The position numbers and the translations under genes are program-made. 64,000 nucleotides of DNA from Amoebidium appalachense (Eukaryota > Protista > Ichthyosporea): positions 10,940,468 through 11,004,467 of the forward strand of contig CAVNZM010000004.1 of the NCBI GenBank assembly GCA_963693365.1. Direction: 5' to 3'. Positions within the stretch are counted from its first letter, which is position 1. Each line of letters opens with the position of its first letter. Below the pieces are notes generated by a model. The model searched no databases and was not told the DNA's origin. It saw only the letters and a list, made by a program, of their open reading frames with translations. This document shows, in pieces, positions 1 to 57,546 of the stretch.

Positions 1-510
1 GACTCTGTCAGTGATATGCACACGGGGTAAATGGTGTGTGCAAAAACCGTGTTTCCATGTGCGTTTCCAGTTGAACGAGCGTGCTTGTGCAGAGGAGATT
101 CATGACGGCGAAGCCGTTGTAAATTTAGGTTTGTAGCCGTATGGCAACCATGTGCAAATGCTACCAGTGTGTTTGTAGTCCTTAAACAATCATCGATTGC
201 GCTCGCATGTGTGCGCACGGGCATGCAAACTCAAGAAAAGGGACATTATTTTACAGGCAATCGTGTTACGCGTGGACACGTTACGTAAAATAAAGTGAAG
301 ACAGAAGGCAACAAAGCTTCAAGTCAAGAGGAACCAGGAAGCGGTCAGCAAGGGATGATTCAGAAGAAACAGGTGGTCAAAAAGTAATAAACAATAAACA
401 CTGCACATATACAATTAGCCTCGAAAACAACATATTTTTAATACTGATAAATTTAATCAAAACCTGAAGGGGGAAAAAAAAAACATCGCAAAACAAAACA
501 AAACACCCAC

Positions 511-2245
511 CCTCATGGAAGTGCCCCTCCTGCCCATAAACGGGTCCTCCACCGCCTTTGGTCGTGCCCTTCCCCTCATCGAGCCGCCGCGCTCACGACT
601 GAAGTGGTCTGAATTTGGATGGTACTTACGTGAGTGGATATGTACATACAATGGATGAAAGCATACAGAAAGGAAAGGTAATTATATCTCTCTACCCTAC
701 ATTGGTGGCAATATGCGCCTGTTCCTTAGGGTTCGAAACAAAAAATGTAGGACAAATATACACAACAATTCCACCAGTAAACTTCTAAGGCCATCTACAT
801 ACCCTACATTGGTGGCAATATGCGCCTGTTCCTTAGGGTTCGAAACAAAAAATGTAGGACAAATATACACAACAATTCCACCAGTAAACTTCGAAGGCCA
901 TCTACAATGTGTGAACCACGGAGGCGAGGGGGGAAGGAGAGGGGGGGGGAGCTCGAGGGAGGGATCCGGAGGAGGGAGGGACATCGTTGTCAAACAGAAA
1001 CGCAGAGGCGAGGGGGGAAGGAGAGGGGGGGGGGGGGGGGGGGGGGAGCTCGAGGGAGGGATCCGGAGGAGGGAGGGACATCGTTGTCAAACAGAAACGC
1101 AGAGCAAGTAAAATCAACCCACCTTTAGCCGGTGTTGCTGCCCCGGATATAGAAGGTGACGCAAACCCGCTCACGTGCTCACTCACAGAGTCTCCGTGCA
1201 AGATGTAGTCGATGCTAAAAATAGAGCGTGGGGTGCTGGGCGTGGGGGTGGCTGCCTCTTCCCTCTTGACCACGTGTACTGGGTAGTCATAAGCACGAGG
1301 CGTGTCGTGCATTTGTGCCTCAGGCGCACAGTGCTCATAGTATCCTGCGTGTGGTGTGTGCGCATGGTACCCGGACCCATTGCTACCCAGCGAGTCGTAC
1401 GAATCTGTTGTCTCCACAGATGACCTTCTTTCTGACTCTAGATTCATGCCATCGTAGTGATCATCCTCAGGTACTGTTTGCGAAATTATGTGCGCGCGTG
1501 AACTTCTAGCAGGGATTTCATTGGCGAGAATACGTTCCAAATCGACCTGGCGTTGTCTCTGCAGCGCGATCTTGTCGGTGAAGCGGCGAGGTGTGAAAGA
1601 CGATTTGATGTCCAGGCCACCAAATTGCTCCTGTTGAAAAGAAACAATTATTGACGGGTTGGTAAGGTACTATGTGGACATGCACGGTGCATCACAGGCC
1701 AATGCCCAAGGACCCGAGACCAATCGACAGTTAGCCAATAACTGAAAAAATTAATGTATGGCCAATCCCCATTGCAACAAGCAGAAGCTTTGCACGCGGG
1801 CCAGGATACTTGGCCAATCCCCATTGCAACAAGCAGAAACTTTGCACTCAGGCCAGGATACTTGTCCTACTGACGGTCCGTCATGTGCCATGTTAGATGT
1901 GGTTCTTGACAGCCATGCCATGACATTACCATGCACAATACTTAAATTTCTGATTAAGGAACAGGGGACAAGTGCCTTCTGTTTCCACACCTCCCATCCT
2001 TTCTAGCAATTGACGAACAATTTGCACACAGTATAATCAACAAACAGATTCGCAAATAACCGTGACACACACGTGCAAACAGTACCCATGGCTGCCATTA
2101 CCTGCAGTAGGTCGTCTAGTTCCTGCTGCCTTAACTGTTGCTGCGCTATTTTGTCGGCAAATCGTCGTGGGGCCTCCCTATTTTTAACCTCCCACGCAGC
2201 TGAGGAAACAACTGCCGTGACGGCTACCTCCCGCACCATTGGCAT
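511..2245 (-). CDS. CRTC/TORC-like (CREB-regulated transcription coactivator-like) protein with two tandem TORC_N-like motifs and an eh1 motif; at least 250 aa, 3' end not resolved
   Basis: Phase-consistent exons 2245-2102, 1630-1123 and 608-511 (donors GTAATG, GTGGGT, GTGGGT; CAG acceptors; in-frame TAG upstream of the ATG). Spliced protein: MPMVREVAVTAVVSSAAWEVKNREA-PRRFADKIAQQQLRQQELDDLLQ-EQFGGLDIKSSFT-PRRFTDKIALQRQRQVDLERIL...VKREE...SIFSIDYILHG...RRGTSMR. The motif resembles the CRTC N-terminus as recalled (PRKFSEKIALQKQRQ in CRTC2). Downstream exons are unclear or lie outside the window. Confidence 0.7.
694..907. repeat. Tandem duplication, 2 x 107 bp, intronic
   Basis: ACCCTACATTGGTGGCAATATGCG...GGCCATCTACA at 694-800 and 801-907, nearly identical (cttctaagg vs cttcgaagg). 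Confidence 0.95.
921..1104. repeat. Tandem duplication, 2 copies differing only in poly-G length
   Basis: GAGGCGAGGGGGGAAGGAGA-(G)n-AGCTCGAGGGAGGGATCCGG...CAGAAACGCAGAG occurs twice, with n=9 (941-949) and n=22 (1025-1046). Confidence 0.95.
1759..1863. repeat. Tandem duplication, 2 x ~53 bp, intronic
   Basis: TGGCCAATCCCCATTGCAACAAGCAGAA...GGCCAGGATACT occurs twice with a few substitutions. Confidence 0.9.
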
Positions 2246-3225
2246 GGCTGAAACAGGAGCCGAATGTTGCGCCAAGAAGAAAGATTGCAGCTAGCGATGG
2301 CGTTGCTGAGTTTGTGCTTGCGTTCTGACAATATAAATCTTTATGTCACTGCAATCCCTCGAACGCTCAGAGCAGGTCTTCGTTGTTTCTCACAGGCCAA
2401 GCAGGTCTTCGCGTTGATCAGAAATTATGAAGTAATTTTAGAACAGAAGTGAGTTGAGCACCACGTGACTCACCCGTGTCGCAAGGTAATGAGCGCCAAA
2501 AAAAAAAAAAAAAGAAGAAGAAAAGGAAGAAGGCCCAAGTAACAACACTAGCATGCAAGTTAGTTCTACAAAAACAACCAGGTTCCACTGAATACTCTAT
2601 CTTCTGACTACTATCAACTATGACTACGTGTGCACTGTGCTGTGGCGTTTTGTCGACCACACGACACACAGCGAGGTATGCTTGATGATGTCATCCAACT
2701 CGTTAATATTCCTTGTGTTGTTACCTTTCAAGAGATACGAATATGAGGGGATTCTTCACATTATATTTTAGAGGGGGGGAAGGCCGTTGAGCAGTTTAGT
2801 TATTTTTTTTTATTTGGGACATAAAAAACGCTGTTTATAGTAGAGCCTTTCTATGCAGTGCGCACAACACATAAAGCATCAACCGCCCATAATTGCTATA
2901 GAGGTCATGACACAAACGAGGGGTTATAGTTATCTTAGCGAGGAAAAAGTCTTCTCGACTGAGTCAACATTCCACACGGACACATGCATGGTGACACTTG
3001 ATAAAACCCAAGAATTACAGTCAAAATTACGAGGTAAAACAGGAATAAATGCCTGCTGATAATAAATAAACTTAAGCGTAATTTTATTTTGCTATTTTTT
3101 TTCTTATTTTTCCAAATCCATTCTTTTTTCCTAAAGCCGCTCATAAGAACCGTTCTTATCAGGTAATGCTTCGAACTATTTTTACACTCCTTCAAAGACG
3201 TCACAGGTCAGATACGCTAGCTCAG

Positions 3226-3484
3226 CCAATCACGTTTGCAGAACAAAATTCCATGATTGGAATGACGTCAGGACATGACGTCACCCTCTGCCCTGAGGGC
3301 CTGCTGGGCCGCTGGCCTGCGTTCAAGATCACAAACTTTCACAGGGAACGCCAAAAACCATACTAATTAATAAAAGAAAAGCTCATTTGTTTTAGTACCG
3401 CTATGTATTTATTATCTCCCACCACACGCATTTGAATAAAATAGAAAGAATACTTGCGAATATGTGTCCTCTTGAGTGACGTCA
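3226..3484. promoter_or_regulatory. Cluster of three perfect CRE palindromes (TGACGTCA) with CCAAT/ATTGG boxes, upstream of the CRTC-like gene
   Basis: TGACGTCA at 3263-3270, 3276-3283 and 3477-3484; CCAAT at 3226-3230; ATTGG at 3256-3260. The motifs are directly visible; their function is inferred. Confidence 0.45.
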
Positions 3485-3546: not shown

Positions 3547-3848
3547 TAAGCCTATGTAAATCTATCCCAAAAAACTACCTAAATATCATATTGCTTTTCT
3601 CCCGATCTATCACAAAACCTACCTAAATATCATAGATCATAACCCGGAAAATCCCGAAAAATGGACCTAAATATCAAGTTCATCTATCCCTTTTTTTTTT
3701 TTTTAATCTATCCCTTGGGCCCCTATCTATCCCGAGAAATATCATTTTTCTCTCGCTGAAGCCTAAATATCCGGGCTAATATCCGGTGCTAAACTTAGCC
3801 CGGCGGGCAGGTATCCATAATATTTCGAAGACTCAGGCCTAAGTATCA

Positions 3849-3946
<98 letters not shown>

Positions 3947-3953
3947 GGTGGGT

Positions 3954-4003
<50 letters not shown>

Positions 4004-4114
4004 TGCATGCATGCATAAAAAGGATATGCATATGGATCATATGCACCATTACGTACGTGTGAGTCGTGACAAGTCTGCAGTGCACGTGTGGCCGGTCCCG
4101 GCCTCGATTGAGGG

Positions 4115-4173
<59 letters not shown>

Positions 4174-4235
4174 GGAATAACTTGTATGCATGCATGAAAA
4201 AGAGTATGTGTGCACGAACCAGAAGGCCAAAGGCT

Positions 4236-4277
<42 letters not shown>

Positions 4278-4650
4278 AAGGCACGGGACGGTCTTGCCAC
4301 CACAATGAAATTTTATCCTTGCTCACGTCGACTACTTATCTTCTACTACATATACATGACTTTTTATCAGCCTGACTTTGCTCTCGTTCACAACCTTGAT
4401 CTTCGCCTATTTGCTGTCATATCCCTGGCCACAAACATATATAATATATCCCTAAATCCACGGGATACCTAAATCTATCCTGAGCGCTCGACCGGGATAT
4501 ATCCACCCCCTGTGGATAGATTGGAAATCCCGCCCCTCCCTAAATATCATTTGGAACTATCCCAAAACTGCCTAAATATCCGGATATATCCCATATCCCG
4601 AGGACCCCTAAATATCCTGTGGAGATGCGGGATTTTTTTACATAGGCTTA
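3547..4650. mobile_element. Non-autonomous hAT-like DNA transposon (MITE-like, 1104 bp)
   Basis: Perfect 14-bp TIR TAAGCCTATGTAAA (3547-3560) / TTTACATAGGCTTA (4637-4650), extending to 22 bp with 3 mismatches. Exact 8-bp TSD GTCGGCAG at 3539-3546 and 4651-4658. About 10 subterminal CCTAAATATC-like motifs near the two ends. The interior is (TG)n and poly-G with no transposase. Confidence 0.9.
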
Positions 4651-7139: not shown

Positions 7140-7646
7140 TGAATATACACCATACGTACCTCCAGAATACATATTACACCACTGTCCATGTGGATATCCA
7201 TCATAGTGTATTATCTCGAGAATACACCCGACTTTATCTTGCCAAACACCGCTATGCATGTGATATTATCCATCATTTCTCGAGAATACACCAATTTGCA
7301 GGTGGATATCCACAGAGTCTCGAGAATACATCACTATGCATGTGAAAATAATTAATCCGCTATATATATATGTCTCGAGAATACGCCACTATGCATGTGG
7401 ATACCCCCTATATCTCGGGAATACACCGCTATGCACGTAATTGTTATCATTCCAGTACATATCTCGAGATTACACCACTATGCATGTTCATATCTACCAT
7501 ATATCTCGAGAACACACCACTATGCGTGTTGACATCTACCATAAATTTCGAGAATACACCACTAAGCATGTGAATATCAACTAATTAGTGATCTCGAGAA
7601 TACGGCGCTATGCACGTGGATACCACTATATTTCTCGAGAATACAC
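7140..7646. repeat. Degenerate ~40-45 bp minisatellite, ~10-12 units
   Basis: The core TCTCGAGAATACACCACTATGCATGTGGATATC recurs near 7214, 7277, 7318, 7373, 7412, 7462, 7504, 7546, 7592 and 7633. Confidence 0.85.
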
Positions 7647-7754
7647 AGGTATGCATCAGGTGACATGGAGTAGTGAGTGAAGGATTGTCTATGTTCAGGC
7701 ATCGCACGGCGTGGTGCAGGGTTGGTGTACGCTCCAAACAAAAGGGTGTGCGTG

Positions 7755-8461: not shown

Positions 8462-9334
8462 TCATTGCCCACCACCGTTTTGCATTTGGACCAATCGCCT
8501 TTCGAAGGCAACGACATCGTGTGGTGAGTTGCACAGATACAACCTTCCATGGGAATCTAGAAGGGAATCCACGTGATCCGCCAGTCTCTCGCCGTCAAAC
8601 ACTATCATATTAAAATTTAAATGGGGGAGCCTCAGCCACATGAGCTGCTTTGTTAAAGAATTCCCATCATCCCCCTCCAATTCCGCGAGCATAGCCGCCA
8701 AATCCTTACACTGCTCTTCATCCACCTTCTCCTTTAACTCCCCAAAGGTCGTTTCTTCGTCGACGATTAAAGAAACACACTCGTTCGGGAGCACAACTTC
8801 CACTTTCCATGTCGTTGGCCCGGTTTTGGGTAGTAGTCTATATTTAGGTCTTGGCGGAGCCGTCAATACTGGTTTCGGCGTGACGGGTTTGGGTGCGGGT
8901 ACTGAAGCCGGTGCTGTTTGAGTAGAATGGAATCGTTTTCTGGCCTGTGGATGGGTTTGACTTCTTGCTCGAACTAGCGGCAATGTAGGCAAGGCAGGGA
9001 GGGACGCAAGACGATTAAAGGCACCGCGGATTCTTTGTGTGCTCTGGGCAAAGAGATTGCGGGTGCGTTCGTTGACGGTCGGAAGCGTTGAAAAGGATGG
9101 CCGACTCGGTACAAAGGTGCGAAGTTTGTCCTGTTAGCGATGGTGGTTAGTGGTGTGCTTTAACAAAATTACAGGAACTAGGGTGTTCCGGCAATGTGTT
9201 TGTCTCACCCGCCTATGGATGTGCACACCGTCCCCACGTGCATGTAAAGAAAAGAAGCATTTGTGCAACACAATCAAGCAGTGCACCATATGGCATGGTT
9301 CAATAAAGTTGTGTGTCAATGTTTCTGCGTTTGT

Positions 9335-34399: not shown

Positions 34400-50338
<15,939 letters not shown>

Positions 50339-51587: not shown

Positions 51588-52129
51588 TCAGCAATTTTCA
51601 GGCCCCGCAGCACCAGACTGCGCCACGAAATCCTTGCTCGAGGGGCAGCCGAGGGTCAGTCTACGGTGAAACACTTCCAGCATGAGCATCTGGCAGGCCC
51701 GGGTTAGAGAGGCATCATAACGGCCCTTGGAGCTCTCATCGCGAAGAAAAGCGTGCCGTGCGTTGAGTTCGCACCAGGCAAAATCCACGTTGTTGTCTTC
51801 AAGAGTGTCTTTGATTTCGCGGATTCCAGCCCTGGGCGTGTGGTTGTCCTGCTTGCCGAATACCATCAAAAGTTCCGTGTTTTTGAGATCCCCCTTCTTA
51901 ACTCGTTCGAGCGAATCGTCCCCCCCCTTTCCGAGAGAGCGTGTGTGTATGTCCGTGGCAAAGAAGCATACAGCGGCAATCACTTCGGGTTCAAACGCGC
52001 ACCGGAAAGCCAGGTGGCCCCCTAGACACAACCCCACAGAGCCTATGCGACCGTTGCAGTCCTTGCGTGACTTGAGATAATCGACCACCGCACGTGCATC
52101 GGCATCATATGCACCTACGGGCTTCGCAA

Positions 52130-54040: not shown

Positions 54041-55827
54041 ATGCTTCGCACTCTCCTTCCCCCCGGACAGGCGTCAGAAGAGCTCCTTACTGAGCTGAAG
54101 AAGAAAAACATACGCTCAGGTAGGAAACTAAAATTGCAACGACAATCAAAAAAGGGAAGACTTGCTTCATGTGAAAAAAGTAGGGGAAGAAGATTTGGTG
54201 TAAATCATGGAGGGAAAGAAAGGGGCTTTCTCAAAAAATGGAGGTTAATCAGATTGGTTTCCTGAAAAAAAAAAAAATTGCGGGAAAAAAATTGGCATCA
54301 TGTGTTTAGTGGGCGGAAAGAACATTTCGCTCTTTGTAAAAAATACGGAGAGAGGATTTGCAGACTAGTTTGGTGTCATAGATGAGACTTTGGGAGAGGA
54401 AACTGTACAGTGAGCAACGACACTTTCTAATTTCGCGCACCAACAGAGCAAATGTGCAGCACTTGGTCAGCCTTCCCTTCTTCCCCCCCCCCCCCTCCCC
54501 TCCCCTAGTCCCTCGGCCCTCCAACTTCAATTTCCCTTCTCCTTCTCGTGCCACCCTTTCCCCACTCCACTCCCGCCACCTCCGTTCTTCTCTTCCTTGT
54601 ATTTTCGCTTCTAAAGACTCTTCCAGCCTCTATGTTGAGGCTTCCATGTTTAATGCCTTAGAAAACGGAAGGCCCCCTCTCAACAGGTGGGAAGGGGAGA
54701 GGGTGATCGTGGATTGCGACAGGTTGGGAGGTTTTGAGGAAATCATGGAGTTGAATGCTGTGGATGTTGGGGCACAGTACACTGATGAATGGAACAATGA
54801 ACTGTACGGCTTTCCATGTGTGTAAGGTGGTATTGCAGCAAAACTCACAACGTCTTTTTTTTCACATTTCCCCAGCCCAGCAAGTGGTGCTGTCTGACCC
54901 TAACCTCTGGTTGAGGGACACAGCACACCCAGAACAGGTACGAGTTTTTGCTCTTCGTTTGCCCTGGTATCACTTTGTGTTTATGATAGAAGTGCTGAGG
55001 TCTTTGTAAATTTGTATAAGAAATCGCATACTCCTATAAACAAAATCACTTACTCCTGTTTCTTTTCATCTCATTTCAATGCGCATAGCTTGTGTCAAAA
55101 CCTCCGAAAAAATCCCCCCCCCCCCCCCCCCACCGCCCTCCCCCCGTTCTCCTCCCCCTTCTCCACCGAACCACCACCGACACTGGGAGTGGAGGCCATA
55201 ATCACCACCACTGCGACGGCGAGCACACAAAACACACAGACAGGCATAGAACGAAATGCCCTTGCAAACATGTACAAATGCGTGCTTGTATTCATCATTT
55301 AACCAGCCAAATAGCCGTGCCCATCATTTTGCAAGTCCTTTTTTGCATGCTTGTGGATCCGTGAATCATTATCACCACATCCCAAATCTAACACCATTAC
55401 ACGAACCTTTAACCAGGCCACTGCACTGAGGGATGCCGCTATCTCTTTGTGCTGCAGCCGCCCTGTGCGTGGGGACCATCTGTTCTCTCGCCTTCTAGAA
55501 GCCGGGGTGGTGCTGAGCACTGGCATAGACAGGTGGGGTATGACGTCATATGTGCACACAGTGATTTACTTATCACGGGGGGGGCGGTCCCTTTATCTTG
55601 CACACGTCCACTCTACCTACAGGTGGTTCGACCTTTCAGTATGGGTGCAAGTTTCGCTTTCGATCCGCACCTCGATATTTAGCTAGAGAAAAACACTCGT
55701 GGGCAGGGGGGGGGGGGGGGTGGGGGGTGGGATGATGGTGAGGGAGGCAGGGAGCATCTCCAAACATGAATGTCATACATCCCCCCCCCCCCCGCCCCTC
55801 CCTTGTTCCCCCTGCGCGCATTCCACC

Positions 55828-55869
<42 letters not shown>

Positions 55870-57546
55870 TAATTGGTTCAACATCACCACCACACACACC
55901 CCACCCGCTTACCATCCCACACCACTCACACCAAACTGTGTTTTTTCCACAGTGTGGACAGTATGCTCGATGGAGGGCTGATGAGTGGAGAGATCACTGA
56001 GTTGGTGGGTCCCCCGGCATCAGGAAAGACGCAGGTAATGCTGTGTGTGGGTTCAGGGGGGGGAGGGGGGGAGAGGAAAAGGTATGGGGGCGAGGGGGGG
56101 GGGGGGGGGGGGGGGGGGAAATAGTGGGCGGGGGAGGGGCGGGGGGAGGAGGGAAGGGGGGGGTTCGTGGTTTCAAGTAAGTTCGACAACATCTGGATGG
56201 TTGGATCGGTGCATGATCAAGTTGTCAATGGTCCTATTTATGTGCACCGATACATTACATTCTTCTATTTGTCCTCGCCCATTCAACAACAGCCCCCCCC
56301 CCCCTCCCCCCCCCCCCCCCCCCCCCCCCCCACACACACACACATCCTCATTCCCTTCCCATCTCTTTTTAATGGCTCCCGTCCTCTCTCCCTCGCTATC
56401 TCGTTTGTTCTCCCCCCCCCCCCCCCCCCCCCGTGGCCCTTCCATTCCATTAAAACACGAATTTCTCTACCCTTCCTTCCACTTCCCTCCCTCCCATCTT
56501 TGCTGGCACTTTCCACCCCCACACTTTACTCACTTCCTGCATGCCCCCACGTGCAGTTATGCCACCATGCAGCGCTGCGCACGTGCACCCAGGGCACAGG
56601 CACTGTGCTGTATGTCGACACAAACAATTCCTTCTCAGCTGCACGCATGGCTGCATTCATGCATCAGTCAAAGGATAATCTTCCTGAGGTTCCCCCCCCC
56701 CCCCCCCCCCCCCCCCCCCCAGTCAAAGGATAATCTTCCTGAGGTTTGCCCCCCCCCCCCCCCCCCCCCCCCGTCGATGGGCTATGTTTAAGTAACACCT
56801 TCTCACCTTCTGCATGCATAATCGCTTTTAGACGTGCTATGTTGTAGGAATTGTTGAATTGTGGTATCTCCATAATTCCTTGGTTGCCACCCTCTATTAC
56901 CCCCCCCCCCCCCCGCCCCCCGAAAGCATGCACATGCAACACTGTATGGCTGTATGAATGAAAACGCGAAGGGTAGAGCTGGGGAAATACAACCCGCAGG
57001 CTTGTTGGGTGGATAGGTGAGTTCATGTGAGGTAAACGAAAGAGAAAAGGGGCTTAGATGAATGAGGTAATTGTGTGTGTGTGTGTGTGTGTTGTGGAGG
57101 AAGGGGAAGGGGCGAGGGGCGAGGGGCGGAGGTGGGGGGGAGGTGGGGGAGGGGGGAGGCAGGGAGGGAGGATATGTCAGATAAAATGGCGATAGAAGGA
57201 AGTCAGAAGGGTTTAAAGTCTGGGATATGGTTGGGGGGAAAGAGCAGCCGATACAACAGGAATTACGGAAAGGCCTATCTGCACGGAAAAATTGCACTGG
57301 GATTACGGCTGGTGAGGTTTTCCCTCAGTGCTGGAGAAGGGGGTGGGGGGGGGAGGGGGGGGGCGAGGGGAGGGGGGGGGGGAAGGGAGGGGGGATACTA
57401 ATATTTTTTACACAGAACCCTTTTGAGGTGATGGACTGTGTGCGCTGCCAGGGGGTCTATTCCATCTACGAGGTAGGGGCATAGGGCTGGGATACCATTA
57501 ATAGATTTTCTGCGCTATGCTACCCACATCCGACGTGTTCTACCCT

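Follow-up and report, generated by a model that had tools for sequence, protein, structure and literature searches.

Tandem CRTC-type helices and an eh1-like motif in one spliced protein of Amoebidium: a probable CREB-docking corepressor adaptor

The window analyzed here is a stretch of 64,000 nucleotides from the ichthyosporean Amoebidium appalachense (GCA_963693365.1, contig CAVNZM010000004.1, positions 10,940,468 to 11,004,467 of the forward strand). At its beginning lies a minus-strand gene whose spliced product contains two copies of the helix by which CRTC coactivators dock on the transcription factor CREB, followed by a motif, FSIDYIL, that resembles the engrailed homology 1 (eh1) motif. 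We read the protein as a probable CREB-docking adaptor for the corepressor Groucho, and hold this reading with moderate confidence. The predicted docking step is CRTC-like but both the TORC_M and TORC_C regions are missing, and we have therefore filed the protein as CRTC-derived and not as a CRTC coactivator.

The gene starts with an ATG at position 2245, and its three coding exons in the window are separated by two introns with GT..AG borders (Table 1). Both exon joints are present in contigs from two of the three public runs (X1 and X2), which represent one sample and for which an RNA origin is a guess; the third run, X3, gave no contig on the window. Together, the three exons translate to residues 1-250 of P0002, a protein of 280 amino acids that EukProt lists for the ichthyosporean Amoebidium parasiticum. 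This protein derives from a transcript assembly, possibly of the same data as X1 and X2, and is not treated as independent. A loose contig end after exon 3 in X1 and X2 points to another exon, and the 3' end of the gene is placed beyond base 1 because no seven-residue piece of the last 30 residues of P0002 is found in any of the six frames of the window. At the other end, transcription reaches at least position 2606, the farthest 5' position covered by an RNA contig. The splice model is the one proposed in an earlier sequence-only reading of the window, which had also placed two PRRFxDKIAxQxxRQ copies and FSIDYIL in one spliced protein; the exon joints and the translation of P0002 agree with it. 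Two near-perfect direct duplications of ~75-100 bp, separate from each other, are seen within intron 2 (709-1104) and represent either recent duplication or an assembly artefact.

The two PRRFxDKIAxQxxRQ copies begin at residues 26 and 62 of P0002, with a spacing of 36 residues. The whole protein scores 28.8 bits with the Pfam family TORC_N against a cut-off of 25, summed over two partial stretches, while each helix is below the Pfam cut-off when taken alone, at 13.8 bits for helix 1 and 19.3 bits for helix 2, which is encoded by exon 2. At E<=10, P0002 has no other match in Pfam, and thus neither TORC_M, in CRTCs the regulatory middle with its SIK/AMPK and 14-3-3 sites, nor TORC_C, their transactivation domain at the C-terminus, and TORC_C is also absent from its paralog P0003, described below, in the Pfam scan. 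In PDB, exon 2 matches nothing but three chains of CRTC2 (E 0.04-0.16), and a profile built from three relatives also finds three CRTC2 chains in PDB, at E 1.7e-5 to 7.1e-5, with the next best match at 1.8. The likeness can be followed along the helix itself (PRRFTDKIALQRQRQ in this protein and PRKFSEKIALQKQRQ in CRTC2). These matches bear out the CRTC-type nature of the helices, as suggested in the sequence-only reading. In an AlphaFold model of the whole protein, residues 26-52 and 62-86 form helices joined by a linker of 9-10 residues, and the rest is disordered. The confidence of this model is low overall, with a predicted local distance difference test score (pLDDT) of 52 and a predicted template modelling score (pTM) of 0.17, and only the two helices reach a pLDDT of 78-85. 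P0002 contains no RxxSxP site, only sites of the type RGGS[ML], whose homology to the CRTC sites is at most putative. A KNREA string before helix 1 was considered as the basic region of a basic leucine zipper (bZIP) and rejected as a chance likeness: it is missing in both relatives, and there is no bZIP family match.

A search of 1.84 billion representatives returned four proteins, P0002, P0003, P0004 and P0005. P0003 is a paralog of 378 amino acids in A. parasiticum, which contains the tandem helices, an eh1-like motif in the same place and the basic C-terminal block. P0004 is a piece of 101 amino acids with the tandem helices in one reading frame; it ends before the position of the motif and is probably one exon read on into an intron. 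P0005 (831 amino acids, from metagenomes) is a repeat protein without TORC_N and was discarded as spurious. The TORC_N scores of the relatives are 35.7 and 50.6 bits. The period of the helices is 35-36 residues in P0002, P0003 and P0004, and nine of 27 positions are invariant across the six repeats. The presence of two helices, one of the claims in the sequence-only reading, is thus kept in all three TORC_N relatives. Between P0002 and P0003, 22 of 26 residues are identical in helix 1 and 16 of 26 in helix 2, as compared to 30 of 96 in the middle region and 44 of 71 in the C-terminal block. In P0002 as in P0003 (306-338 in the latter), this block holds a pair of F-x3-RG-x-S-[ML]-R repeats, doubled like the helices, and the part encoded by exon 3 has no match in Pfam or PDB. 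In their alignment, P0002 and P0003 end no more than 11 columns apart, which makes it unlikely that an activation domain is missing past a truncated end, although the stop codon was not seen.

Other searches gave no further relatives. None of 493 candidates among longer proteins was a homolog of exon 2, and at near lengths the only one in 48 was P0002 itself. A profile search passed three of 5716 candidates, all of which were input sequences. No animal CRTC passed this search either, and a canonical single-helix CRTC may therefore also be present in A. parasiticum. The best score in the ESM Atlas was 0.80, which gave no usable lead. Both TORC_N proteins seen from A. parasiticum carry the tandem helices and the eh1-like motif, and the automatic Pfam annotation of P0002 and its relatives was already on record.

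Human CRTC2 binds CREB in a 2:2 complex on DNA with the cAMP response element (CRE), via a helix at residues 22-45, and the CREB-binding domain of CRTC alone, without the activation domain, is a dominant negative in human cells (available text of PMC13571231). The activity of CRTC needs both the binding and the activation domains (available text of PMC5325614). Ichthyosporeans possess CREB, and also p300/CBP with a KIX domain (available text of PMC5560861). To predict docking, residues 20-92 of P0002 were modelled with two copies of P0007, the bZIP of a CREB from a metagenome contig, with no DNA included. The complex scored 0.67 and the best of three controls 0.01, with an animal-like CREB as stand-in and a like complex already solved. 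Of microbial pairs, 51 of the 78 solved ones and 2 of the 108 mismatched ones attain the score mark; for eukaryotic pairs, the corresponding numbers are 39 of 65 and 2 of 126. The model runs share at least 87% of the contacts, and the pLDDT of the partner is at least 76. In the model, each helix occupies one face of a single bZIP dimer in a symmetric arrangement, and all 14 helix-2 contacts correspond to helix-1 positions shifted by 36 residues, on opposite copies. P0007 is nearly identical to the CREB chain of the solved CRTC2-CREB complex, and the model therefore shows likeness, and a linker able to span the dimer in the model, rather than actual binding.

The sequence FSIDYIL fits exactly the EH1 consensus FS[VI]xx[IL][LM]; for A. 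parasiticum, Groucho orthologs are described, together with C2H2 and GATA factors that bear conserved EH1 motifs (available text of PMC4943189). The paralog has FTIDFLL, with a T in place of the S; four of the seven residues are identical and the other three are conservative. The motif is located in a disordered region of the AlphaFold model, outside folded domains, and it is retained in both full-length homologs, from one species, amid poorly conserved sequence, being flanked by long unalignable insertions. The flanks are not acidic in P0003. The pattern F[ST][IV]xx[IL][LM] appears in 0.08% of shuffled P0002 sequences (P 0.0008), and P is 0.0006 for P0003. Of the earlier suggestion that the protein carries a repression motif, a plausible eh1 kept in the paralog stands, in a species with Groucho, whereas the binding of Groucho is a prediction from the sequence.

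If the protein acts as an adaptor, one chain would supply both helices and fill both CRTC sites of one CREB dimer, with a predicted high avidity. The disordered tail would carry the eh1-like motif to the pore of the Groucho WD40 domain, and the basic C-terminal block with its conserved RxxS sites may serve as a phospho-switch, a nuclear-targeting element, or both. The likely net effect would be that CREB targets are damped rather than switched on.

Several observations weigh against this reading. Each helix covers only the first 17-18 of the 63 TORC_N positions, and the second half has diverged. The score of the modelled complex may reflect memory of the solved CRTC2-CREB complex. A looser eh1-like pattern appears in 6.9% of the shuffles, and the conservation of the motif rests on two paralogs of one species, since P0004 stops before it. 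In both motifs, position 5 is occupied by an aromatic residue, which the stricter eh1 pattern of ELM bars, and none of six such 7-mers was found in the literature searched. Finally, the middle region is acidic (18 D/E versus 7 K/R), as activation regions often are.

The acidic middle region is also Tyr-rich and disordered, which would suit a second reading, one that we consider rather unlikely: that the protein is the working CRTC of this lineage, either a bivalent CREB coactivator or an activator/repressor switch with a diverged activation region, and that the motif is an amphipathic CBP/p300 activator motif instead of, or besides, an eh1. The motif also fits the activator pattern hydrophobic-x-x-hydrophobic-hydrophobic, and both TORC_N proteins of A. 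parasiticum share this build, with no canonical CRTC in view. A KIX domain for such a motif is present in ichthyosporean p300/CBP (PMC5560861), and RGGS[ML] echoes GGSLP in the CRTC regulatory site I (available text of PMC5325614), without the downstream PNV and with a homology that is at most putative. However, neither TORC_C nor TORC_M was matched, and the C-terminal 80 residues are basic (13 K/R versus 5 D/E). The motif, moreover, matches the eh1 consensus exactly, its flanks in the paralog are not acidic, and the species possesses Groucho.

The basic block raises a third possibility. It is the best-conserved part outside the helices (44 of 71 residues) and is explained by neither model. 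With its helices docked on a bZIP, the protein could mainly be a passive blocker, a scaffold, for example one that binds nucleic acids by its RG-rich basic block, or a bridge of two dimers on adjoining CREs, with the eh1-like motif being incidental. The CREB-binding domain by itself is enough to block, with no corepressor involved (available text of PMC13571231), and some of the CREs are paired at distances of 13 and 23 bp. We nevertheless consider this improbable, as the two paralogs retain the motif amid adjoining sequence that is not conserved, and as the fixed period of 35-36 residues suits a single dimer in the model.

Three perfect CREs (TGACGTCA) are located at positions 3263, 3276 and 3477, which is 1018, 1031 and 1232 bases upstream of the ATG, as the sequence-only reading had it (1.0-1.25 kb), and 657-871 upstream of position 2606. 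The window contains seven perfect CREs versus 0.86 expected, and none of 100 shuffles reaches seven; Markov models of orders 1-4 give an expected count of 0.2-1.2, and order 5 gives 4.3. For three CREs within 1.5 kb, the Poisson P is 1.5e-4 to 6.5e-4 at the window's own rate, a post hoc estimate for sites that cluster elsewhere too. Four of the seven CREs lie away from the gene. A second close pair (49557 and 49580), accompanied by three CCAAT boxes (49483-49663), falls within an intron of another gene, unrelated and on the plus strand, and clusters of CREs and CCAAT boxes are therefore not unique to the CRTC-like gene. The intron that bears this pair is skipped by the contig of its gene, and a low-depth contig covers part of it; the pair is possibly an intronic enhancer or a hidden promoter. 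Another CRE, at 55541, is seemingly located, as judged by eye, in an intron of a Rad51-like gene, of which one exon was identified on the plus strand (55954-56037, Pfam Rad51, E 3e-4).

A non-coding element (3547-4650) starts 62 bp beyond the third CRE. It has terminal inverted repeats of 22 nt (86%), along with a perfect target-site duplication of 8 bp, GTCGGCAG, as found in hAT-type miniature inverted-repeat transposable elements. Contigs from X1 and X2 agree with its end apart from one difference and then diverge, so that other copies of it exist.

The sequence-only reading had placed these CREs in a negative-feedback loop comparable to that of ICER but made with a coactivator-type protein, which would be a special case of the adaptor reading: CREB would induce the gene via the CREs, and the product would displace an activating CRTC and recruit Groucho. 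The three perfect CREs and the CCAAT boxes, less than 0.9 kb from the transcribed region, and the anatomy of the protein would suit such a loop. On the other hand, four of the seven CREs are found elsewhere, the other close pair flanked by CCAAT boxes is in an unrelated intron, and no activating CRTC was seen in A. parasiticum in searches that are insensitive to single-helix CRTCs. We regard the full loop as quite unlikely; feedback driven by the CREs is possible, but outside what the evidence supports, and the terms "CRE-driven" and "negative feedback" were dropped. The name "anti-CRTC" was given up as well, given that both TORC_N proteins carry the motif and that the searches, insensitive to single-helix CRTCs, yielded no activating CRTC as its opponent, and "new module" is too strong for a new combination of two interaction motifs that were already known.

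Animal CRTC1-3/TORC proteins (PF12884; PDB 5ZKO, 5ZK1, 4HTM) are similar to this protein in having an N-terminal CREB-binding helix and a disordered remainder with basophilic serine sites. They differ in that here there are two helices rather than one, an eh1-like motif, a basic C-terminal block unmatched in Pfam and PDB, no TORC_M or TORC_C, a length of 280-378 amino acids and an ichthyosporean host. An engineered dominant-negative CRTC, dnCRTC (CRTC1 1-55; available text of PMC13571231), likewise has CREB-binding without an activation domain and would occupy the CRTC sites, whereas the protein described here is natural, bivalent and equipped with a candidate corepressor motif. The EH1-bearing factors of A. 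parasiticum (Copley 2016, available text of PMC4943189) are similar in species, type of motif and evidence from paralog conservation, but those bind DNA (C2H2, GATA), while the protein described here matches no DNA-binding domain and would be brought to DNA by CREB. The alignments S2a-c, and most of S2d, in the available supplement of PMC4943189 do not include this protein. ICER is a bZIP repressor that binds DNA itself. The present protein would also damp CRE-dependent transcription and has CREs upstream of its gene, but unlike in ICER, induction and feedback are hypothetical here.

No CRTC that is non-animal, tandem or eh1-bearing was described in the mostly open-access literature searched, and nothing was found there on the combination of CRTC, Groucho and eh1. 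For CRTC together with Capsaspora or choanoflagellates, CRTC appeared only in one reference list. TORC/PF12884 was not found in the available supplements of PMC6792448, PMC5560861, PMC4739763 and PMC4943189 (one of two files for the last). The finding places the CREB-binding helix of CRTC outside animals, in an architecture that we have not found described, and it bears on whether Groucho repression was at one time linked to the docking module of a coactivator. One scenario, which we think unlikely, is that the helix predates animals and was doubled, in unicellular relatives with Groucho, into a single-chain CREB clamp wired to Groucho, either as a natural anti-CRTC induced by CREB by way of the CREs upstream or as a premetazoan repressor or switch that preceded the animal coactivator architecture. 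Inhibitors of the CRTC-CREB interface have been pursued with single stapled helices (available text of PMC13571231), and a natural protein that engages both CRTC sites of CREB with one chain would offer a template for such inhibitors.

Table 1. Features of the CRTC-like gene and its upstream region in the window.
Feature	Position	Strand	Basis
Intron 3, leaves the window; exon(s) for the last 30 residues past base 1	1..510	-	GT donor, loose end in X1 and X2
Exon 3: basic block, two F-x3-RG-x-S-[ML]-R repeats, kept in paralog	511..608	-	
Intron 2, 514 nt, GT..AG	609..1122	-	joint in X1 and X2
Exon 2, from the end of helix 1 through a 10-residue linker, helix 2, an acidic and disordered middle and the eh1-like motif to the first part of the C-terminal block	1123..1630	-	
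eh1-like motif FSIDYIL, residues 186-192	1199..1219	-	paralog: FTIDFLL
CREB-binding-type helix 2, residues 62-87	1514..1591	-	TORC_N, CRTC2 PDB matches, model
Intron 1, 471 nt, interrupts helix 1	1631..2101	-	joint in X1 and X2, GT..AG
Exon 1, coding part, residues 1-48; helix 1 begins at 2170 (P26)	2102..2245	-	contigs, translation
Exon 1, 5' untranslated part, minimum extent	2246..2606	-	X2 contig spanning 2101-2606; true start not seen
Upstream cluster: two CCAAT boxes and CRE pair 3263/3276	3224..3283	.	sequence; putative element
Third CRE palindrome	3477..3484	.	sequence; putative element

Elsewhere in the window, a degenerate repeat array around TCTCGAGAATACACC (7140-7650) is the source of most of the eight TCTCGAGA palindromes. 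The nearest upstream candidate gene is an open frame of 223 codons on the minus strand (8465-9133), which has an ordinary composition and no Pfam match. The last exon of a gene of the dienelactone hydrolase family is found on the minus strand at 51591-52127 (Pfam DLH, E 7e-16).
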